Source of the DNA: an uncultured Planctomycetales bacterium
Lineage (GTDB): Bacteria; Planctomycetota; UBA1135
Reading direction: 5' to 3'
DNA length: 64,000 nucleotides
Assembly (NCBI GenBank): GCA_964637165.1
Contig: CAZWVI010000002.1
Coordinates: 119,470 to 183,469 of the forward strand
Shown here: positions 16,826-58,973 of the stretch, piece by piece
Layout: each line of letters begins with the position of its first letter
Position numbering within the stretch: the first letter of the stretch is position 1
Program-made: the position numbers and the translations under genes
Notes under the pieces: generated by a model
Databases searched by the model: none
What the model saw: only the letters and a program-made list of their open reading frames with translations
Told to the model about the DNA's origin: nothing

Positions 16826-17833
16826 TTAACCTAAGTTATGTGATTTGTAAGCCAAATCGCAAACACGGTTCGAGTAACCCCATTCGTTGTCATACCAGGA
16901 GACCACCTTAATCATGTTTGAGTCCATGACCATGGTTGACTTGGCATCGTAAATTGACGAGTGAGGGTTTTGCAAGATGTCACTAGAAACAAGTGGGTCT
17001 TCAGAGTACTCAAGAACACCTTTCATGTCTCCGTCGGCGCAAGCTTTAACGGCTGCGTTTACTTCATCGACAGTCACTTCCTTGTCAAGCACGGCAACGA
17101 GGTCCACGACTGAACCATTTGGAACAGGAACACGCATCGACATACCATCTAATTTACCGTTTAATTCTGGCAACACTTTGCCAACTGCGCGTGCCGCGCC
17201 GGTTGAGGTTGGAATGATGTTGCAAGCAGCGGCGCGTGCACGGCGCAAATCACCATGTGGCAAATCTAAGATGCGCTGGTCATTGGTGTAAGCATGGGTG
17301 GTGGTCATTAAGCCGCGACGGATTCCAAACGCCTGATGCAATGCCTTTGCCAAAGGTGCTAAGCAGTTTGTAGTACAGGAGGCATTTGAAATGATTTTGT
17401 CTTCTGCCTTTAGATCTTCATCGTTTACTCCAAGCACAATCATGTTGTCGATTGCGTCCTTGGGTGGAACGGTTAGCACAACTTTCTTGGCGCCAGCATC
17501 GATGTGCTTTTGGCAAGCTTCGCGAGTGGCGAAAATTCCAGTGGCCTCAATCACAAAGTCGATATTCAAATCGCCCCATGGCAGATTGGCAGGATCGCGC
17601 TCAGCAAGAGCTTTAAGAGGTTTGCCATTGACAACTAATTCACCATCGCCAACTTTAACCGTGCCGTCGAAACGGCCGCCTACGGTGTCGTAGCGAAGCA
17701 GGTGAGCCAGAGTGGCTGGGTCAGTCAGGTCGTTAATCGCAACAACTTCAAAGTCGTTACTACGAGTCTGCATGATGCGGAAGACATTCCGGCCGATGCG
17801 ACCGAAACCGTTGATGGCAATGCGAATGGCCAT
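16826..17833 (-). CDS. gap: Type I glyceraldehyde-3-phosphate dehydrogenase
   Basis: INGFGRIGR, catalytic [18 protein letters not shown]. Confidence 0.98.
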
Positions 17834-17910
17834 GATTTTCTTTGTTTTTTCTTGGGTTTCGCCGAAAAGGGCTTCTCGGCGTGGGAGGAATAGGGGATTC
17901 TACCCTAAGT

Positions 17911-18855
17911 ATGGTTTCTTCGCCTCCCCAACTTGCCAACCTCACGGGCTTTAATGTCTTTGGTGGCTGGCCCGCCACCGACCGAGTAATGCTCGCCTGC
18001 TCTGGTGGTGCTGATTCCACCTACTTGGCCTGGGCTTGGCAAGCTTTTGCCACCAGTTTGGCGGAGCCTCCATTGGCGACCGCAATAGTAATTAACCACG
18101 GGTGTCGCCCCGAAAGTTTTGCCGATGCCCAACAAGCGGCGGCGAACTTACAGCAACTAGGCTTGGAGGTCGAGGTGCGCACTCTAGACTCAGTGCGGGA
18201 GACCGAGAACAATTTGCGCATCAGTCGGTATCAGGCTTTTGCAGAGTTCGCCCTTGAAAGCGATTCGCGAATTTTATTAACTGCCCACAACGCTGACGAT
18301 GTGGCTGAAACAGTGCTCCTGCGAATTATGCGTGGCACGGGCTTGCGAGGATTATCCGGAATTCCACAACAAAGAACAATCACCCTTGCTAATGGCCAAT
18401 TGCTTCAATTGCGCCGACCACTACTGAGTTTACGCAGCAATGAAATTCGTAGTACGTTAAGTGCAAACAATATTACTTGGGTCGAAGACCTAACTAACCA
18501 AGACTCGAGTTATGCACGACGGAATTATCTTCGCCAAGAAATTTTGCCGCATCTTGAAAAAATCTCCACTGGCGATCCAATAAAAGCATTACTTCGCTTA
18601 GCCTCTGAGGCAAGTGACCGTAATCAGTCGCTTGACGAATTGTTAAGTAGCTCCATTGAGTGGAAATCACTTCCAAGTTATTATCGCCGACAAGTAATTG
18701 CTCAACAGTTGCGCCAACTGCACGAAACAGTAAGTCCGGCAAGATTGGTGGATTTGGAGCAAGCCCTCCTTAAAACCGGCAAGGTGGGGGTGTCAGTACA
18801 CCATCAACTTCGATTAATCAGCTCGGGACAACTTGAGTCTGCCCAGCGGAATTGA
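17911..18855 (+). CDS. tilS: tRNA(Ile)-lysidine synthetase, short form without the C-terminal domains
   Basis: PP-loop CSGGADS, TAHNADDVAETVLLRIMRG, RPLL, EDLTN...RRNYLR. I place the start at ATG 17911 rather than 17842. Confidence 0.88.
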   Translation: MVSSPPQLANLTGFNVFGGWPATDRVMLACSGGADSTYLAWAWQAFATSLAEPPLATAIVINHGCRPESFADAQQAAANLQQLGLEVEVRTLDSVRETENNLRISRYQAFAEFALESDSRILLTAHNADDVAETVLLRIMRGTGLRGLSGIPQQRTITLANGQLLQLRRPLLSLRSNEIRSTLSANNITWVEDLTNQDSSYARRNYLRQEILPHLEKISTGDPIKALLRLASEASDRNQSLDELLSSSIEWKSLPSYYRRQVIAQQLRQLHETVSPARLVDLEQALLKTGKVGVSVHHQLRLISSGQLESAQRN

Positions 18856-44132: not shown

Positions 44133-45593
44133 GTGATGAAGACTTCAATAGCCCTGTTCCTAGCACTTTTTGCGAGCTCCTTTGGGGCCGCTCAGGCATT
44201 CGCGCAAGCAGCGCCGGCCAGCCCTTCTCAGGATTCTGAGCAGGGATTTGACCAGGAGGCCTTGGACGCAAAAGTCGCCGAAATTTTGCCGCGCGTAGAA
44301 GAATTGCGTGGCTGGAAATTTGACCATAGTGTGCCGGCAGGGGTTAATACCCCAGACGAATTCCTTGAATTCGCCTCGGCCGAATATGAGAGTGAATACG
44401 GCGCCGAGAAAATGAAGGCGATTACTGATGCCTATATCATGTTCGGGCTTTTTGATGAAGGCCAAGATTTGTTAGAGGTTTCGATGGAATTATTGCGCGG
44501 CCAAGTCGGTGGTTATTACGACCCTAAAACTAAAAAGTTTTACATGATGTCAACCTTCAATCAAGGTGGCTTAGCTGACATCATTATGGCGCATGAATTA
44601 ACTCACGCGCTTGATGATCAACGCTTTCATTTAGACGAAATGTTTGCTGAGGCGATGGACCTAAATGACGATGCGGTCTTTGCCTTGCGCGCGGTAGTCG
44701 AGGGTAGTGGCACATCTCTAATGAATTTGTATACGATGCAAGGAATGCTGGCCGGTTATTTGAAAATGGAGCCAGCTGAAATGATGGAAATGATGGAAGG
44801 TGCTTCTGAATCATTGGAAGGCGCGCCACCGTTTTTGATTATGACCATGGCCTTGCCATACCTTGAAGGGAATAAGTTTTTAGTTAAACAGTCAAGCATT
44901 CTGGCAGCGGCGACCATGACTCCCAAGAACGATGATCTTGATCAAGCCTTTAACAACCCGCCGGTTTCATCTGAGCAAGTTTTACATCCGGAGAAATATT
45001 GGGACGCAGACAAATTAGATCTTCCGGTTGAAATAAAGCATCCAGATTACTTAGCAGTATTGCCTGGTGTGCAAACTAATTACACGGCATTAGGAGGCGG
45101 GGTAATTTTTGCCATCATCTTGATGTTGGTTTTGATTCGCAAAAACCCCAGCCTTGCCGGTTTGGCGTGTGCGTCATCTTTGATCATTGCGGTGATTCAA
45201 GCACGTGGTGATTCTTGGGAAATAATGGAGCAAAACACCTTAGGTGAAATTGGTTGCTTTATTTTGACCGCTGACGAATTGCCTAACATGGCAACTGCTG
45301 AAGGTCAGATGGCGACCATGACCAATGAAGCTGCGAGTGGTTGGGGAGGTGATAGTTACACGCTATTAAAAGCTCCCAATGGCGGCCAGTTGATGGTTTG
45401 GGCAACTGTTTGGGATAGCCCAGAAGATTGCGGAGAATTTTCATCAGAGTTTCACATGATGAATGATGAAAATAAATTTATGGTTAATGTTGATGAATAT
45501 GAATCCGCAGTTGTAGTTGCCTACGCGGACGAATTAGCGGCCGAGTACGCCGAACTTGTTTGTCAAAAATTGGCAACCGCAAATAACTTTTAA
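44133..45593 (+). CDS. Secreted zinc metallopeptidase-like protein (HEXXH)
   Basis: Signal peptide, GGYYDPKTKKFY, AHELTHALDDQ, VVEGSG (third ligand), PY.EG..F, SSEQVLHPEKY, TLGE, GWGGD. Confidence 0.72.
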   Translation: MMKTSIALFLALFASSFGAAQAFAQAAPASPSQDSEQGFDQEALDAKVAEILPRVEELRGWKFDHSVPAGVNTPDEFLEFASAEYESEYGAEKMKAITDAYIMFGLFDEGQDLLEVSMELLRGQVGGYYDPKTKKFYMMSTFNQGGLADIIMAHELTHALDDQRFHLDEMFAEAMDLNDDAVFALRAVVEGSGTSLMNLYTMQGMLAGYLKMEPAEMMEMMEGASESLEGAPPFLIMTMALPYLEGNKFLVKQSSILAAATMTPKNDDLDQAFNNPPVSSEQVLHPEKYWDADKLDLPVEIKHPDYLAVLPGVQTNYTALGGGVIFAIILMLVLIRKNPSLAGLACASSLIIAVIQARGDSWEIMEQNTLGEIGCFILTADELPNMATAEGQMATMTNEAASGWGGDSYTLLKAPNGGQLMVWATVWDSPEDCGEFSSEFHMMNDENKFMVNVDEYESAVVVAYADELAAEYAELVCQKLATANNF

Positions 45594-47269: not shown

Positions 47270-47298
47270 CCCATTAATTGGGGTCAGAGTCTGGAGCT
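47267..47298. repeat. REP-like palindromic repeat, copy 1
   Basis: TGACCCATTAATTGGGGTCAGAGTCTGGAGCT; 28/32 identical to 50933-50964; hairpin TGACCCA-N5-TGGGGTCA. Confidence 0.8.
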
Positions 47299-50200
47299 AG
47301 AAATTGATGTCGATGGAGCTCGTTTGGCCCGAGCGGACATCTACTTGGGTTTCTCGCTCAACCCCACCTTTTTGCGCGATGATTTTGTAAACCCCAGGAG
47401 CGTGTGAACCTAGGTCAACATTGCCTGCCGGAATAATCCCGCGTAAAGCAAGCGGGACATTGCCGCGTCCATCGCTGGCAACATGGTCGCCATTAGAGTT
47501 GATTAACACTACTTTGTCGGCATTAACTAGGTCGCCGTTTTCCAGGATTGAAACTCGAACTTTCCCGCCTTGTTCAAGATTAATTTTGCAAACAGTGGTT
47601 TCACCGGCAGAAACTGCGACTTTGGTGAGGGTGGCGGATGCGTAACCATCGGCTTTAACTTCAACATCCCAAAGCCCTGGTTCTAAACCTTCAAGTAGCG
47701 AGGAGGCCCCTTCGTCAGTAACTCGTCCCCAAGATTGCTTGCTTTTGGAATCATTATCTTCTTTGGTTTTTTCACTTGGCCAGGCCGAAGTGGAGAACCA
47801 TGTTTGCTTAGTATCTCCGGAGAATGAAACTTGAATATCAATGATTCCTCCTAGTGGTAGCTTGATATCGCCGAGGTCAAAGTCGTCGCCCTCACGCAAG
47901 GTGAACGTTTTACTGGTCACTTCACTGAATGATCCAACGCCATCAACTTTCCCGCCTTTGACCACAACTTGATAACGGCCAGCGGAAATGCGTTCGAACT
48001 CAAAGAAACCATCATCGTTTGATTGGCACCAGCCCGCGCGACTACCGTTGCGGCCGCCGCCGAACATCATCGACATCATGCCTTGGTTTTGATTCATGCC
48101 GCGTAATGTGAGGCTAAGGTCGGGGACAGGCATTCCAGACCCTTCGGCAATCAAGCGTCCACGGACGTTTGAAACAGGTATTTCCAAAAGCAGGAAGTCT
48201 TCTGCGGCATCCATTACTTCAACTTCAAGCGCTCCATTCCAATCACCGGTATCGATTTGGGCACGGTATTCTCCCGGCTCAAGAGACTTGAAAACGAACT
48301 TGCCATCTTTGTTACTGCGAGCCGTTGACATTCCAAAGTCGAGCATTCCAGAATTCGCTTTCAGCATCAGAATGTTGGCATTGGGGACTGGTATTCCTCT
48401 ATCTAGAACTTCACCTTCTACACGACAACCACCGGCAGATGAATCAATTATGTCAAGTTGGGTGACTTCATTTTCTCGAACGTTGGCAGTGGTTATCTTT
48501 GAACCGGATAGCATTGTCATTATGTCGCCGGTGAAAAGTGACTCATCATCAAGTGCGGCAGTAACCATAATGTAAGATCCAGCTTTCATGTTTGACATGG
48601 TGTAAACACCGTCACCATTAGCAGCAGTTTGTTGAAAATCCTTAGCTTGCATTGAAGCTGCGCCAACCATGCGGCCGGGTAATGGATTATTATTACGGTC
48701 ATAAACTGTGCCAGTTAGAGTTCCACCAAAGGGCACTTCAACTTTGATTCCAGTCCGTTGTTCGTGCTGTTCTAAGGCTTCTACTTTTGATGACGCTGCA
48801 GCATATCCATCAGCTAAAACATTTACATGGTCGGCACCTGATTCAACGCCGTGAACCGTGAAGAATCCATCACTGTCCGTTTCGGCCATTGCCACACTGT
48901 CACCCATGCCTTGCAGCATTGCCATAAACCCCGATTCCTCACCTTTGCCAGCTGTTACAACTGCGCCGGCAATTGGGTTGCTAGTTCCAGCTTCAACAAC
49001 CCGACCAGAAACACTCGCGCCCGGTTCGAGGCTAAGCACAACATCTTTTGTAATTTTGTTTTCAGCAACGATAACTGCCGGCGACTTTGAGCTGGTAAAG
49101 CCTTCGGCTTGAGTAGTTAAATACCACGCGCCGGGAGGAAGGCCGGTAATTTCGAAACTACCTTGGTCGTTGTCGACAAAGTACGAAGCTTGGGCTTTTT
49201 GCCGCCAAGAGTTAGTGCTTCTGATGAGTTGCTCGCCATCGTTAAGCCAGCTTACTTCAGGTTCAGGTTTGGAGTTCGCCTCAACGCCATCTGAAATGTA
49301 TCCGAGGCTTTGAATCTGAGCAGTCATAGCTTGAGAATCTCTGGCCATTTCTCCGCGTATCAAACATATCGAAACAGCTTGGTCGTCAATGGAGTTAATA
49401 ACCTTGCCGCGAATTCCGCCCGGTTTGGAAATTTGCAGAACTGGTTGATGTTCATCCTTTAAATTATTGAGTGAAAAATCAAAATGCGCGTAGCCTTTAG
49501 CTTCAACTCGTAACTTAGCTTGCTTCCATGCAGGGATTTTAAATTCACCCTTGGCATTGGTTGTAGTGAAGGTTGTTTCTGGAATTAATTCGGGAAGTAT
49601 TTCTTGAGCAGCCTCCATTAATATTCCCCCGGGACGATTCATGCGACTGCGCTCGCTACCACGGTCTTCGGTTGAAGTTGGGATAGCCATCAATTTGACC
49701 ATGGCTCTGACAACGGGTTTGCCAACGCTGTCTACAATTCTTCCAGAAACAGTTTGGCTAGTGTTTATTACTAATGGACCGGCGAGAGAACCATTGCCAT
49801 TAACTTGGGCACTGCCTGGCGCACTGCGCCCTTGTTGCCCCTGCGCCATCAGTAAGTAGCTGGCATTTGGCAATTGAGTAAACCGGTATTGACCTTTACT
49901 ATTACTGGTGGCGGTCCACAGCATTGGATCCCGCACAAATGGAATTGTTAAGCGCAAATCAAGCGGTAAAGCAATGACGTCGGCGCCAGTAATTGCTTTA
50001 TCTTCAGTGTCAAGAATTTCACCTTCTAAAGTGCCGAGTTGAAATAGCTTGACTTGAATATTGTTTTCAGTACTGGGAGCCAATGGACCAAACTCACGCA
50101 TTCCTCCTTCGACTCCGCCTCGCCAAGCATTTACCGTAAGAGGTATTCCAGCCGGTACTGCCTCAATCTCAAATGTGCCGCTAGCATCGGAGTAGATTCG

Positions 50201-50872
50201 TTCCATGAAGAAACTACGGTTGCGAAATGCTGACAATAAATATTTCACGCCAGGGCCGATTAAGACTTCGGCGCCAGCAACGGCACTGCCATTTGCGTCT
50301 ACAACTTTGCCGCTAACGCTGGCTGCGGCAACCGTGCGCACGATTACTGGGCTGTCCGAGTTGTTCAAGTTCTCGCTTAAAACTCGCTGGCGGCGTGGTG
50401 TTAAACGTTGCTTGGTTCTTGCAGTTAAATAAATCGTACGGCCTTGAAGGCCACGTAAATTAAAACGACCTTCATGGTCTGCAAATACAGAAGCCATCGG
50501 CTCTAAATTGAAATCTAAGGGCTTTTCAAAAATTTCAGTTATGTCGCTAGTGAAGTCAAATAGTGGAAATGGAACTGAGTAGGCTGCCACCCAACAACCG
50601 GATACCGCCTGATTGTTTTCATCAACTACAATTCCGGACATCTTGTGTTTGCCAAGACCAACCTTTTCTTGTCGGTTGTTAAAGCTTGGCAATTCAACAC
50701 TGTTAATTCTTGAGCCGGCATCGCTATTAGATTCGGCTACATCTTGATTGTTATTTAGCGTAGAAAATTCCAGTTGATCAAGATTATGTTCTTGTTCATC
50801 GGTGGGCGAGAATAGCAGCCACGCCAAGGCGGCTGCTAGAGCGAGAAGTAGGGGAATGAGAACCTTGCGCAT
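47297..50872 (-). CDS. Large membrane-anchored protein of tandem carboxypeptidase-regulatory-like (transthyretin-fold) repeats
   Basis: N-terminal TM; about 10 repeats of G.V.D..G.PV.GA.V...TD..G.F.I..L.PG.Y.L...A.G. Confidence 0.8.
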   Translation of the reverse strand: MRKVLIPLLLALAAALAWLLFSPTDEQEHNLDQLEFSTLNNNQDVAESNSDAGSRINSVELPSFNNRQEKVGLGKHKMSGIVVDENNQAVSGCWVAAYSVPFPLFDFTSDITEIFEKPLDFNLEPMASVFADHEGRFNLRGLQGRTIYLTARTKQRLTPRRQRVLSENLNNSDSPVIVRTVAAASVSGKVVDANGSAVAGAEVLIGPGVKYLLSAFRNRSFFMERIYSDASGTFEIEAVPAGIPLTVNAWRGGVEGGMREFGPLAPSTENNIQVKLFQLGTLEGEILDTEDKAITGADVIALPLDLRLTIPFVRDPMLWTATSNSKGQYRFTQLPNASYLLMAQGQQGRSAPGSAQVNGNGSLAGPLVINTSQTVSGRIVDSVGKPVVRAMVKLMAIPTSTEDRGSERSRMNRPGGILMEAAQEILPELIPETTFTTTNAKGEFKIPAWKQAKLRVEAKGYAHFDFSLNNLKDEHQPVLQISKPGGIRGKVINSIDDQAVSICLIRGEMARDSQAMTAQIQSLGYISDGVEANSKPEPEVSWLNDGEQLIRSTNSWRQKAQASYFVDNDQGSFEITGLPPGAWYLTTQAEGFTSSKSPAVIVAENKITKDVVLSLEPGASVSGRVVEAGTSNPIAGAVVTAGKGEESGFMAMLQGMGDSVAMAETDSDGFFTVHGVESGADHVNVLADGYAAASSKVEALEQHEQRTGIKVEVPFGGTLTGTVYDRNNNPLPGRMVGAASMQAKDFQQTAANGDGVYTMSNMKAGSYIMVTAALDDESLFTGDIMTMLSGSKITTANVRENEVTQLDIIDSSAGGCRVEGEVLDRGIPVPNANILMLKANSGMLDFGMSTARSNKDGKFVFKSLEPGEYRAQIDTGDWNGALEVEVMDAAEDFLLLEIPVSNVRGRLIAEGSGMPVPDLSLTLRGMNQNQGMMSMMFGGGRNGSRAGWCQSNDDGFFEFERISAGRYQVVVKGGKVDGVGSFSEVTSKTFTLREGDDFDLGDIKLPLGGIIDIQVSFSGDTKQTWFSTSAWPSEKTKEDNDSKSKQSWGRVTDEGASSLLEGLEPGLWDVEVKADGYASATLTKVAVSAGETTVCKINLEQGGKVRVSILENGDLVNADKVVLINSNGDHVASDGRGNVPLALRGIIPAGNVDLGSHAPGVYKIIAQKGGVERETQVDVRSGQTSSIDINF

Positions 50873-52016: not shown

Positions 52017-52118
52017 GTTGTTAGTCTTTGGTAGCGTAAATCGCCAAGGTGGACGAGGGTGAAGCTAGGATTAAGCCACGATGGCCGAGACTCAACCCTT
52101 GATTGCGGCCTAAACGGC

Positions 52119-53231
52119 GTGCAAGAGCATAAGAATACAAAAAATACCGCGGTTGTGTTGCTTTCGGGCGGACTCGATTCTGCCACAGTTAGCGCCAAGC
52201 TGATTGCCGATGGCTACGAGGTCATCGCTCTGAGTATCGATTATGGCCAACGGCACGTAGTGGAATTGGCCGCCGCCCAAAAACTCGCCCGACTACTCGG
52301 GGTGAAGGAGCATGTGGTTATGCCGATGGACATGAATGTCATCGGGGCCTCGGCTCTTACTGACGACAGAATCGAGGTCCCCAAGGATGATGACGCTAAT
52401 GCCGCAGTTGCCGCCGATATACCGATCACTTATGTGCCAGCGCGCAACACAATTTTCTTGTCGTTGGCCCTTGCTTTGGCGGAATCCCGTGGTGCCCATC
52501 ACATTGGAATCGGGGTCAATGCTCTCGACTATTCTGGTTATCCAGATTGCCGGCCAGAATTCATCGCGGCTTTCGAAAAGCTCGTCAATTTAGCGACTCG
52601 TGAAGGTGTTGAAGGTCGTTCCATAAAATTGCTAACCCCATTGCAGGATTTGAGCAAAGTTGAAATTTTGCAGTTGGCGCGTAAGTTGGCGGTTCCGGTC
52701 GATGAATGCATTTCTTGTTATGACCCACGGCCGAAAGCTTGTGGTGAATGCGATTCATGCCGCTTGCGAATTCAAGCGGAGGCAAAATTATCGCAATGGA
52801 ATTTTCGCGCACCACAGTCGGTCGCAGAAATAGTTGATTTGCGCCACCGCAACTTGCGCCAAAATCAAGCTCGTGAAACCGCTTTCTATCCTGAGGTAGA
52901 TGAACTTGCTAGCACTCGCCATTTGATGGCAGAAGTTGACGGCCAACTGGCTGGGTGTGCAACTTTGCAAGTGGACCCGTCGAGTAACGAATCGTGTCGT
53001 TTGCGAATTCGTGGAATGGCCGTGGACGAGCAGTATCGCGGCATTGGGTTAGGCTCGGCGATGGTGCGTTGGTGCCAAAGTTTGGCTGCCGAAAGTGGCG
53101 ATGGGATTTGGTGTAACGCGCGGATTTTGGCGGTTCCAATGTATGCGCGTTGCGGATTTAAAGTTGCTTCGGATATTTTTGAAATTGAAAACATAGGACC
53201 TCACTACAACATGGAGTGGCAAAATGACTAA
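52119..53231 (+). CDS. queC: 7-cyano-7-deazaguanine synthase QueC fused in frame to a C-terminal GNAT acetyltransferase
   Basis: LLSGGLDS, YVPARNTIFL, DYSGYPDCRPEF, Zn site CISCY...CGECDSCRLR. About 140 further aa follow, with RGMAVDEQYRGIGLG, WCNAR..A..MYARCGF and GPHY. Start placed at GTG 52119. Confidence 0.9.
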   Translation: MQEHKNTKNTAVVLLSGGLDSATVSAKLIADGYEVIALSIDYGQRHVVELAAAQKLARLLGVKEHVVMPMDMNVIGASALTDDRIEVPKDDDANAAVAADIPITYVPARNTIFLSLALALAESRGAHHIGIGVNALDYSGYPDCRPEFIAAFEKLVNLATREGVEGRSIKLLTPLQDLSKVEILQLARKLAVPVDECISCYDPRPKACGECDSCRLRIQAEAKLSQWNFRAPQSVAEIVDLRHRNLRQNQARETAFYPEVDELASTRHLMAEVDGQLAGCATLQVDPSSNESCRLRIRGMAVDEQYRGIGLGSAMVRWCQSLAAESGDGIWCNARILAVPMYARCGFKVASDIFEIENIGPHYNMEWQND

Positions 53232-54104: not shown

Positions 54105-54181
54105 GGGGATGTGGCGCAATTGGTTAGCGTACCAGACTGTCGATCTGGAAGTTGCGGGTTCGAGTCCCGTCATCCTCGCCA
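54105..54181 (+). tRNA. tRNA-Asp (GTC)
   Basis: Acceptor GGGGATG/CATCCTC, G73, encoded CCA; anticodon arm CCAGA-CTGTCGA-TCTGG; GTTCGAGTC T-loop. Confidence 0.97.
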
Positions 54182-56242: not shown

Positions 56243-56319
56243 GGGCGATTAGCTCAGTTGGCTAGAGCACCTCCCTTACAAGGAGGGGGTCGGGGGTTCG
56301 AGCCCCTCATCGCCTACCA
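56243..56319 (+). tRNA. tRNA-Val (TAC)
   Basis: Acceptor GGGCGAT/ATCGCCT, A73, CCA; anticodon arm CCTCC-CTTACAA-GGAGG; GTTCGAGCC T-loop. Confidence 0.97.
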
Positions 56320-56376: not shown

Positions 56377-58197
56377 ATGTTTGCCAGCCTCCTCCTAGCC
56401 GCTGCACCACTTTTGCAGGGAGAAGTCGTCGCCACCGCGCGCTTCGTTCCAGATTCAGCCCCTGCCGGCGCCCCGGTTGAACTTCACGTGATGCTGGATA
56501 TTGCACCCGGCTTCCACGTTTACCACCCGGATCAAAACCCTATGGACGGGATTCCGGTTTCGGTCAATGTTCCGACTGGATTTTCCGCAAACGGAGAGCT
56601 TAAGTCATTATCTGCTCCTGACTTACATGAGGACATATTTGGTAGCACCACGGTTGCATACCTGTGGCTGACCGGCAAGGCAGAATTGGTTTTGCCACTA
56701 ATAAAGGATTCTGGGAACCTCGGGGCTCATGACGTAGCGGTCGAGGTCGGCGTGCAGGTTTGCGATGACAGCCTGTGTTTTCCGCCATCGACGGTAAAGA
56801 CCAAGGCAACTTTTGAGGGTGAGGATGGCGAATTTGTAGCATCAGGAAGTACCGAAATAACTGTAGAGTTTCCGTCTTCAGTTGAATCAGTGCAAAGCGG
56901 CGAAAGCAAAGAGGACCCCAGTTTGTGGGCCTTTTTACTTCTGGCAATTGGTGGTGGATTATTCGCACTGATGATGCCCTGCACTTATCCGATGATCCCA
57001 ATTACGATCAGCTTCTTTACCAAGCAAGCTGATGCGCGCGGTGGCAACGTTATGCCTCTAAGTTTGGCGTACGGCGGCGGCATCGTTGCAATCTTTGTTT
57101 TGATTGGCGTGATGATTGGACCGTTGGTGTTGGCTTTTGCAACGCACGCGGTAACTAACTTGGTAATCGGTGCAATGTTCTTGGTGTTCGCCTTGGCATT
57201 GTTTGGAGTTATTACTCTGAATCCACCGCAAGCTTTGATGGGCGCCGCAGGTAAGGCCTCGGCAACGGGTGGATACTTAGGTGTGTTCTTAATGGGTGCC
57301 ACCTTGGTCATCACTTCCTTCACCTGCACCGCACCATTCGTTGGTAGCTTGTTGTCCTTTGGAGCAAGTAGTGGGAGTATGTTGCGAGTCGCGTTAGGAA
57401 TGGGAGTGTTCGGCTTAACCATGGCCATCCCTTTTGTGTTTTTATCTTTGGTCCCAGGCAAAATAAAACAAATGCCACAATCGGGCCAATGGATGGACAC
57501 CATTAAGGTAACTTTAGGATTTGTTGAACTGGCGGCCGCGTTGAAGTTCATTTCTAATGCCGACATCGTTTGGGGTCTTGAGTTGTTGTCGCGCGAAACT
57601 TTCCTCGCTGCATGGACAATTATCATGTTGGCCGCAGCCTTGTACTTGTTCGGAGTACTACGCAAAGGTCCTAAGCCCAAAGTCGGCGCCAAGCGCGCAT
57701 TCACCGGTTTGTGTTTTGTAGCGTTCTCCGCCTATTGCGCATGGGGCTGGAACGGCGCTCAGATGGACACGGTTATGACTGCCATTATTCCTAACTATCA
57801 CAGTAGTGGCGAGCATAAAGCCGCCCACGCGGTGGTTATTGATGATTTGGAGGCCGCTAAAACTCAAGCTGTCGAATCCGGAAAATTAGTCTTGGTGAAT
57901 TTCACCGGCCACACCTGAGTGAATTGTCGCGCGATGGAAGAGAATATCTTCCCGCAACCGGCGGTCGCCGGAATCTTAGATGGCATGGTTGAAGCGCGTT
58001 TACATTACGACAGTAATGACGATGCTGTGAAGACTGAAGTTAAGCGCTTGCAGGATGAAATGGTGCAGAGTTTCGCCACACCAATTTACTTGGTGCTTGA
58101 CCCAACAAGCGGCGAAGTTTTAGCGCGCCGCGATGGTGCGTTAATGGACGAGACCAAGTTTGCGAATTGGTTGTCGAGCGCGCTTACCGATAAGTAG
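56377..58197 (+). CDS. dsbD: Three-domain thiol:disulfide interchange protein DsbD; putative selenoprotein (in-frame TGA 57916-57918 read as Sec in UxxC)
   Basis: Signal peptide; alpha-domain CDDSLC; TM domain PCTYP and FTCTAP. The two ORF-track pieces are contiguous in one frame, giving NFTGHT-U-VNCRAMEE (606 aa in total). Confidence 0.88.
57931..57955 (+). promoter_or_regulatory. Putative bacterial SECIS element
   Basis: GCG-AU bulge-GGAAGA-GAAUA loop-UCUUCC-CGC; the loop starts with G, 24 nt after the UGA. Confidence 0.7.
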
Positions 58198-58973
58198 TGT
58201 TTCAAAAACTGCGCTGTGTGCCTGGTGATGGCTTGGGAAATACTTTCTTAATCGTCATGCAGGCCGACTTGGAGCGCATCGGTAGCGACATGCCGGCGCT
58301 AGCCGCGCAATTATGCAATGAATGCGATGGCTTGTTGTTGGTCGGTCCAAGTAACAATGACCGCCCGATGAGTTTGCGAATAATCAATCGTGACGGCAGC
58401 GATGGTGGAATTTGTTTTAATGGGCTGCGCGTTGCAGCTTTATGGACCCATCAAAAAGAAGGTGCTTTCGTTATGGACGGCCATCATGTCGAATGGCAAA
58501 TGTTGTCTGACAATGTAGTTGAGTTGCATTTACAAGCCAACGAACTTTCCGATGAATTAACTTTGCAACACATTCACACTTCGGTTGCTGAGGGAATAAA
58601 AGTTCCGTTTTGGAATCCACATGCGGTCTTTCCGATGGATGAAATTAATGAATTCGATTTGCAATCATTGGCAATCGAAGTGCGGGCTCAAGTTGATCTA
58701 TTTCCAGATGGTGTAAATGTTGAGCTAATAGCACCGGCGGGCGAGCGCGGATTGCAAATGCGCGTTGACGAACGAGGTGTCGGAGAGACCCAAGCGTGCG
58801 GTTCTGGGGCGGTCGCAGTGGCCCTTTTGGCGTGGGCTCAAGCGGCTCCGAGGGAGCTTGCGGTGAGTATGCCAGGCGGGATTATTGTGCTTTCTCCGGC
58901 CTCTGGTGGCGGCATTTTGTTGGCTGCCGAAGCAACTTTGGGCGAAGCTTTTGACGCTCACCTAAGTCTTTAA
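58197..58973 (+). CDS. dapF: Diaminopimelate epimerase-family protein (divergent)
   Basis: GLGNTF, NRDGS...CFNG, NPH, GVNVE, DERGVGETQACGSG; both catalytic Cys present. The GTG start overlaps the dsbD TAG. Confidence 0.7.
   Translation: MFQKLRCVPGDGLGNTFLIVMQADLERIGSDMPALAAQLCNECDGLLLVGPSNNDRPMSLRIINRDGSDGGICFNGLRVAALWTHQKEGAFVMDGHHVEWQMLSDNVVELHLQANELSDELTLQHIHTSVAEGIKVPFWNPHAVFPMDEINEFDLQSLAIEVRAQVDLFPDGVNVELIAPAGERGLQMRVDERGVGETQACGSGAVAVALLAWAQAAPRELAVSMPGGIIVLSPASGGGILLAAEATLGEAFDAHLSL

Follow-up and report, generated by a model that had tools for sequence, protein, structure and literature searches.

A planctomycete DsbD gene with a candidate selenocysteine codon and two hairpins downstream of it

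Is the in-frame TGA of a planctomycete DsbD gene a stop codon, or is it read as selenocysteine (Sec)? This question is raised by a window of 64,000 nt, which is the whole stretch of DNA that we have analyzed (contig CAZWVI010000002.1, positions 119,470-183,469; all coordinates given below are window positions). A reading frame starts in this window with the ATG at 56377, the first start codon following the preceding stop. It is open through ...KLVLVNFTGHT, reaches a TGA at 57916-57918 and continues with VNCRAMEENIFPQPAVAG..., for 92 further in-frame codons, up to a TAG. Gene callers break this open reading frame (ORF) into two products of 513 and 87/92 amino acids. The original prediction, made from the sequence of the window, was that the two pieces form a single selenoprotein of the DsbD family, with a UxxC motif at its thioredoxin active site. 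Our analysis points to the same conclusion: judging from sequence comparisons, the UGA would be decoded as selenocysteine by SelB and tRNA-Sec, with a probability of roughly 0.88. We base this conclusion on the pairing of TGA and Cys codons among related genes (72 vs. 8), on the conserved frame found downstream of the UGA, on the colinear alignment with Escherichia coli DsbD, and on constraints at the RNA level which are specific to the Sec form.

Domains of the protein and conservation of the UGA

The domain searches, run on the protein with Cys written at the UGA, give the alpha-beta-gamma order of the DsbD family, which is found both by Pfam and by a colinear BLASTP alignment (Table 1). This alignment with the DsbD of E. 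coli K-12 (NC_000913.3) extends over 589 residues, with 23% identity and an E value of 6e-26. It pairs C129/C134, C202, C317, U514 and C517 with C103/C109, C163, C285, C461 and C464, respectively (E. coli residues are numbered as in the mature protein). All six essential redox positions of DsbD are kept, with the UGA codon in the place of C461; in the gamma region, E. coli DWCVAC aligns with the U514-V-N-C517 motif. The Cys residues of the alpha and beta domains (C129, C134, C202 and C317) are invariant in an alignment of 21 homologues.

The NCBIfam profile for DsbD (NF001419) covers residues 117-601 with 161 bits. Its cut-off is 330 bits, so that the protein represents a distant subfamily of DsbD and not an equivalog of the enterobacterial type. 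In a hydropathy scan, the N-terminus resembles a signal peptide and six membrane segments stand out strongly; a further two stretches are weaker, being seen by eye only and not flagged by the scan. Such a pattern is compatible with the eight-helix topology of DsbD, although it does not prove it.

The TGA had been placed on the first Cys of the thioredoxin CxxC, and this is where we find it (NFTGHT-UGA-VNCRAME), in frame with the initial ATG. The frame does run on to a TAG which overlaps the start of dapF, and standard callers do split the gene, as had been anticipated. TGA terminates 11 of the 41 other long ORFs in the window, from which we conclude that the genetic code is standard.

A protein search gave 1,682 homologues, and the best 120 were inspected. 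Of these 120, 63 carry the Cys motif FTGxTCVNC, and the others end in ...NFTG[HYF]T, one residue short of the CxxC. At the DNA level, we have compared the 80 best-matching species-representative genomes, nearly all of them metagenome-assembled genomes of Planctomycetota, with 44-67% protein identity. In the column which corresponds to the first Cys of the CxxC, TGA is found in 72 of the 80 (not counting the window itself) and TGC or TGT in the remaining 8; TAA and TAG are never found. The frame is open for 84-114 codons beyond the UGA in all TGA-type loci, with a conserved sequence VNCRxMEE..F..P.V...EARLH. The presence of TGA at one column in 72 of 80 species, with a conserved open frame behind it, is far beyond chance. 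Cys-type homologues, which read FTGxTCVNCRxME in agreement with the original prediction, are single full-length proteins. The pairing of Cys and TGA that was expected at this position is thus present in the alignment.

The gene of the window is found again without any base change, TGA included, in ENA ERZ23498983 and in JGI 3300008954, 3300007512 and 3300007770. These four are metagenomes which were assembled separately and come from two data sources. An error in sequencing or assembly, with TGC or TGT as the true codon, had been considered from the beginning, and it is excluded by the presence of the same TGA in four independent assemblies.

The 115 homologues which could be used, 59 with Cys and 56 truncated, were placed on a neighbour-joining tree. 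The Sec and Cys types are intermixed on it, with at least 16 switches by parsimony, as is usual for Sec/Cys pairs. The codons next to the UGA are also biased. The Thr codon directly before it is ACA in 31 of 60 TGA-type genes and in none of 7 Cys-type loci; at position -4 of the TGA-type genes, Thr is coded by ACA in 1 of 71. The Val codon directly after the UGA is GUG in 48 of 51 TGA-type genes. In the window, the two flanking codons are ACC (57913-57915) and GUG (57919-57921). This bias at -1 and +1 suggests selection on the immediate context of the UGA.

Two other features of these loci may be mentioned. A convergent feoB gene (ferrous iron transporter) lies about 2 kb downstream of DsbD in locus L036 (4904-7096, minus strand) and in about 20 other loci; it is not a neighbour of DsbD in the window, where dapF and gyrA follow. 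Locus L016 (JBLIMI010000149.1) is labelled as Candidatus Paceibacteria, yet it contains a planctomycete-type TGA-DsbD with the same selenocysteine insertion sequence (SECIS): This contig is probably mis-binned.

Two hairpins downstream of the UGA

The RNA alignment covers 69 nt around the UGA in 67 TGA-type genes and is free of gaps. Two hairpins are found after the UGA (Table 1), and both of them are under selection at the RNA level.

Hairpin 1 is the hairpin described in the original prediction, and it is present as described. Its base begins 12 nt past the UGA and its loop 23 nt past it. Compared with dinucleotide shuffles, its folding energy of -9.6 kcal/mol has z = -3.4. In the alignment, pairing of the upper stem is good, and pair 31-39 shows 10 compensatory double changes. 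In addition, the synonymous choice between GUC and GUG at Val +10 follows the partner base found 8 nt upstream (Fisher p = 0.0012). The loop is variable, with 40 different sequences among the 67 genes; a G is found in its first two positions in 50 of the 67 and is absent in 17.

Hairpin 2 (CCGGC-GGUC-GCCGG in the window) is 93% paired. Four of its five pairs present compensatory double changes, and a one-sided change is found in one sequence only, at pair 53-58. The loop is GGUC in 65 of the 67 genes. The codons lying under this hairpin are nearly fixed in the Sec forms: Pro is CCG in 55/60, Ala is GCG in 63/64, Val is GUC in 66/68 and the second Ala is GCC in 59/63. As a control, for upstream Ala codons of the same gene with an equal degree of conservation, the share of GCG is no higher than 42/71 and 35/69. 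The amino acids themselves follow the type of gene: Ala-Val-Ala is found under hairpin 2 in 61 of 71 Sec-type sequences, 4 of 8 Cys-type loci and 8 of 63 Cys-type proteins. The stem is restored where the residues differ, for example in PEVSG (GCCCGGA-GGUC-UCCGGGC) and in AAVAA, and the hairpin has been lost in half of the Cys-type loci.

Four TGA-type loci do not have hairpin 2. They form one subgroup, with the sequence NEEKVFPS, and they present a GGUC tetraloop at the position of hairpin 1 (+30). The few other exceptional TGA-type loci have GGUCA, GGUCG or AGUU loops. These exceptions follow the same pattern, so that no TGA-type gene is without an xGUx loop at most 60 nt away from the UGA.

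The apical hairpin of the E. coli fdhF SECIS, as read from the genome, is UGCA-GGUC-UGCA. The G-U of the GGUC loop is recognized by SelB, according to work with the E. coli and Moorella proteins. In view of the compensatory changes, the fixed synonymous codons and the near-invariant loop, which is the same as in fdhF, we are inclined to consider hairpin 2 as the SelB-binding part of the SECIS, with some reservations.

The rules proposed for bacterial SECIS (bSECIS) elements include an apical loop of 3-9 nt, a stem of 4-16 bp, a G among the two leading nucleotides of the loop, a distance of 16-37 nt from the UGA and a minimum free energy not above -7.5 kcal/mol (PMC13188914). Hairpin 1 of the window agrees with all of these rules: The loop has 5 nt with G as the first, the stem has 6+3 bp, the spacing is 23 nt and the energy is that given above. 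Hairpin 2 agrees with those for loop, stem and energy. The suggestion that hairpin 1 fits the bacterial SECIS model stands as far as formal rules are concerned. Nevertheless, its loop is not conserved, and the conserved GGUC of the second hairpin had escaped notice.

A long-range stem between the UGA region (columns 7-20) and columns 50-61 is 93% paired, and RNAfold picks it in about half of the sequences. We have rejected it as a conserved structure, because it presents only one-sided C/U changes and is broken in species where hairpin 2 covaries. It may be an alternative conformer, formed before the arrival of the ribosome.

Decoding of the UGA and its alternatives

If the UGA is decoded as selenocysteine, the product would be a transmembrane thiol:disulfide reductase of 606 residues, belonging to the DsbD family; its beta domain would be in the membrane, and its alpha domain and thioredoxin-like gamma domain in the periplasm. 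The N-terminal nucleophile of the gamma-domain CxxC would be selenocysteine, inserted through the SelB/tRNA-Sec pathway under the direction of an RNA element contained within 55 nt 3' of the UGA. We infer that SelB may bind to hairpin 2, while hairpin 1 would fold out as a structured spacer. With hairpin 1 folded, the UGA would be about 14 unpaired nt away from the base of hairpin 2, compared with 11 nt in fdhF. The electron path is drawn by analogy with that of E. coli DsbD: cytoplasmic thioredoxin would reduce C202/C317, from which electrons would reach C129/C134 by way of U514/C517, and periplasmic partners would come last. In E. coli DsbD, the residue at position 461 has two exchange partners within the protein, the membrane domain and the alpha domain. 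U514 would take over the role of C461 as the exposed nucleophile, and would form transient selenenylsulfide links.

Several observations weigh against this proposal. We have not found selA, selB, selD or tRNA-Sec in the window or its flanks of 10 kb on each side, nor in the 80 loci; selC was likewise not found in this DNA. The search covers only about 84 kb of one genome, which makes it weak evidence either way. In particular, tblastn with E. coli SelA and SelD gave nothing in the window and the 80 loci, and none of the ten window ORFs with a size similar to SelA, SelB or SelD matches these proteins in Pfam. Weak tblastn matches to the G domain of SelB in about 20 loci correspond to FeoB. Moreover, no Rfam family matches the element, either in a scan of the whole window at the gathering threshold or in a permissive scan of 57850-58050; the scans returned two tRNAs and sub-threshold noise only. 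The position of the hairpins also raises doubts: The GGUC loop of hairpin 2 starts 44 nt past the UGA, outside the 16-37 nt of the bSECIS model (PMC13188914), and hairpin 1 occupies the place where the minimal hairpin of fdhF would be. Finally, part of the hairpin 1 stem is dictated by the M-E-E...F-P codons and is present in Cys forms too. In favour of the proposal, complete sets of Sec genes are reported for some Planctomycetes (PMC4807772). A search for other selenoprotein candidates, as TGA-joined ORFs with a GGUC hairpin in the window and the loci, gave extra hits, and every one of those inspected was an Arg-rich, off-frame artefact of high GC content.

The meaning of the UGA may be explained in other ways. 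A standard amino acid, Cys or Trp, could be inserted at the UGA by read-through or recoding, with neither SelB nor selenium taking part. Near-cognate read-through of UGA does occur in bacteria, and no Sec machinery was seen in the DNA covered. We find this very improbable: It leaves unexplained why a GGUC hairpin of the fdhF type should be tied to TGA-type genes and decay in Cys-type genes, the alternation of TGA and Cys codons, with its repeated switches on the tree, is the usual pattern of selenoproteins, and with low-level read-through, most of the protein made would lack the gamma domain. The UGA could also be a real stop, so that the locus would code for a DsbD with alpha and beta domains only and for a separate small protein, just as the gene callers have it (513 aa + 87 aa). 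This is even harder to accept, given that the codon is always TGA in the 72 species, that the downstream piece is always directly adjoining and in the same frame, and that the Cys homologues are single full-length proteins. In addition, the 87-aa product as called starts at the ATG of MEENIF, so that it lacks both active-site residues. As for a nonsense mutation in a pseudogene, or an error for TGC or TGT, only the single-base distance between these codons and TGA speaks for it. An identical TGA in four independent assemblies from different projects, and its persistence in 72 species at the identities given above with the downstream frame intact, make such an explanation practically negligible.

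A different alternative accepts the insertion of selenocysteine, with hairpin 1 as the SECIS which binds SelB and hairpin 2 as an accessory, such as a pausing or insulating structure. The conformity of hairpin 1 in the window to every formal rule, the distance of its base from the UGA (12 nt, near the 11 nt of fdhF) and its covariation would agree with this arrangement. It is difficult to reconcile with a loop that has 40 sequences in 67 species, 17 of which have no G among the two leading loop nucleotides, and with Cys forms which retain much of the hairpin through their M-E-E...F-P codons. The constraint which is both sequence-specific and Sec-specific falls on hairpin 2, and in the four loci where hairpin 2 is missing, it is the loop of hairpin 1 that has become GGUC. 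We regard hairpin 1 as a possible but rather unlikely SelB site.

Going back to the decoding as selenocysteine with SelB on hairpin 2, a more ambitious picture may be drawn. The gene would be the first full-length selenoprotein DsbD relay, and this form would prevail within a large clade of Planctomycetota. Its SECIS would be a composite of two hairpins, in which a covarying spacer hairpin brings the GGUC, 44 nt past the UGA, within reach; in a few relatives, the loop would have moved to hairpin 1. Taken as a whole, this picture is tentative, and we would give it slightly less than an even chance.

The features of the locus are collected in Table 1.

Table 1. Features of the DsbD locus and its surroundings, in window positions
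Feature	Position	Strand	Remarks
tRNA-Asp(GTC)	54105..54181	+	2 kb upstream; not tRNA-Sec
tRNA-Val(TAC)	56243..56319	+	Ends 57 nt ahead of the DsbD start codon; not tRNA-Sec
Full recoded ORF	56377..58197	+	606 sense codons, proposed Sec at codon 514, TAG stop
Hydrophobic N-terminus, probably a signal peptide	56377..56433	+	Hydropathy scan
DsbD alpha, N-terminal periplasmic domain	56443..56802	+	Pfam DsbD_N, residues 23-142
Alpha Cys pair, C129 and C134	56761-56763, 56776-56778	+	Align with E. coli C103/C109
DsbD transmembrane (beta) domain	56926..57555	+	Pfam DsbD_TM, residues 184-393, E 3.5e-22
Beta Cys, C202 (MPCTYPM) and C317 (SFTCTAPF)	56980-56982, 57325-57327	+	Align with E. coli C163/C285
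Thioredoxin-like gamma domain with U514-V-N-C517	57841..58104	+	Pfam Thioredoxin_7, residues 489-576
In-frame UGA, probably read as selenocysteine U514	57916..57918	+	In the place of E. coli DsbD Cys461
Resolving Cys of UxxC, C517 (E. coli C464)	57925..57927	+	TGY in 71/71 Sec-type sequences
Hairpin 1	57931..57955	+	GCG / AU bulge / GGAAGA / loop GAAUA / UCUUCC / CGC
Hairpin 2	57958..57971	+	CCGGC-GGUC-GCCGG, loop 57963-57966; proposed SelB-binding apical hairpin of the SECIS
True stop TAG	58195..58197	+	1-base overlap with the GTG start of dapF
Next ORF, DAP_epimerase (dapF), GTG start	58197..58973	+	

A few other genes in this region are worth mentioning. The ORF at 52059-53231 (+) codes for QueC (7-cyano-7-deazaguanine synthase) with a GNAT acetyltransferase domain fused at its C-terminus. 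A 486-aa ORF at 44133-45593 (+) is flanked by an FAD oxidoreductase and a gamma-glutamyltranspeptidase and gives no match in Pfam at E <= 1e-5, and a protein of 1191 aa at 47297-50872 (-) is made of CarboxypepD_reg-like and other Ig-like repeats. A split frame of 321 codons is found on the same contig, some 4.2 kb outside the window on the side of its start (17795-18760 in locus L089, and at the same place in L090). Its product is rich in repeats and appears similar to BNR/sialidase proteins by eye. It is interrupted by an in-frame TAG (...WFGGG*VHPAIH...) and is called as two genes of 104 and 209 aa in two independent assemblies: It could be a pseudogene or a candidate for read-through.

These results have some practical consequences. 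In dozens of Planctomycetota genomes the gene is annotated as a truncated DsbD and a small orphan ORF, and no NCBIfam selenoprotein flag is given. As a result, both selenoproteome counts and functional calls of DsbD are off in this phylum. Marine planctomycetes with Sec-DsbD are probable selenium users. The natural switches between Sec and Cys, at least 16 in a single clade, provide matched pairs for testing the benefit of selenium in a disulfide relay of an oxidising compartment. The proposed SECIS arrangement of Sec-DsbD would stretch the published spacing rule of 16-37 nt; if a loop of the SelB type does stand 44 nt away from the UGA, with a spacer hairpin in between, predictors of bacterial SECIS elements would have to search over a wider range. 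Sec at a CxxC is the commonest type of selenoprotein. What deserves the attention of a specialist is the placement in a DsbD, the large number of natural Sec/Cys switches and a SECIS made of two hairpins.

Comparison with known systems

A first reference is the DsbD of E. coli (DipZ, b4136), which has the same three domains in the same order and the same six redox positions. The window protein would differ from it in having Sec instead of Cys at the 461 position. The cytochrome c maturation and dsb genes are not among the neighbours of the window gene. The solved structure closest in sequence to the gamma domain is PDB 3F9U, a putative exported cytochrome c biogenesis-related thioredoxin-like protein (E 5.9e-7), whose sequence FTGYGCVNCRKME aligns with FTGHT(U)VNCRAME of the window. 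Unlike the window protein, 3F9U is a single-domain protein with Cys.

The RNA element may be compared with the SECIS of E. coli fdhF. Both are placed within the coding sequence, directly 3' of the UGA, and both present a GGUC tetraloop on a short stem rich in G+C. They differ in spacing: Counting the U of the UGA as +1, the GGUC loop starts at +22 in fdhF, at +48 in the window, with a separate hairpin of 25 nt in between, and at +30 in the four relatives described above.

A published family of selenoproteins also comes close. The domain by which it is defined, cd02953 of CDD, is the DsbD-gamma domain. This family has been listed as "thiol:disulfide interchange protein" since 2004, and the Global Ocean Sampling (GOS) survey, which refers to it as "Trx-like 2", defines it by cd02953 and assigns it a UxxC motif (Kryukov & Gladyshev 2004; PMC1794560, PMC2398784, PMC13188914). 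This family shares with the window protein a thioredoxin-like domain of the DsbD-gamma type in which Sec is the first residue of the UxxC. When the member from Geobacter metallireducens is aligned with the gamma domain of the window by BLASTP, U is aligned to U, with 27% identity over 89 residues (E 6e-7). The published members from Geobacter and Syntrophus nevertheless stand alone. They have about 190 aa, compared with the 606 residues of the window protein, their motif is NPGUIGC, and alpha and membrane domains are absent. From the UxxC alignment and the stand-alone nature of these proteins, we conclude that the family is known at the level of the domain, and that the three-domain membrane architecture falls outside it. 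The original prediction had suggested that the family might not be new, which is correct for the published Sec thiol:disulfide proteins; these are not three-domain DsbD proteins.

Another selenoprotein, TsoB (NF045694), is similar to a fusion of rhodanese and DsbD, and shares with the window protein a membrane domain of the DsbD type. Its profile gives 120 bits over residues 181-535 of the window protein, in the membrane domain only, far from its cut-off of 805 bits. TsoB contains a rhodanese domain, and its motif is UxxxxU (PMC13188914). Unlike the window protein, it does not have a UxxC in a gamma domain.

There is no NCBIfam model for a full-length Sec-DsbD, and we have found no report of one in the literature, including a 2026 review on the selenoproteins of prokaryotes (PMC13188914), although the 22 GOS reads of "Trx-like 2" could include fragments. 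In summary, the comparisons strongly support the window gene as a selenoprotein gene, of a form that is widespread in Planctomycetota and systematically mis-annotated. Sec in a UxxC of the thioredoxin fold was known before; its occurrence in the DsbD membrane architecture appears as a new architectural variant.

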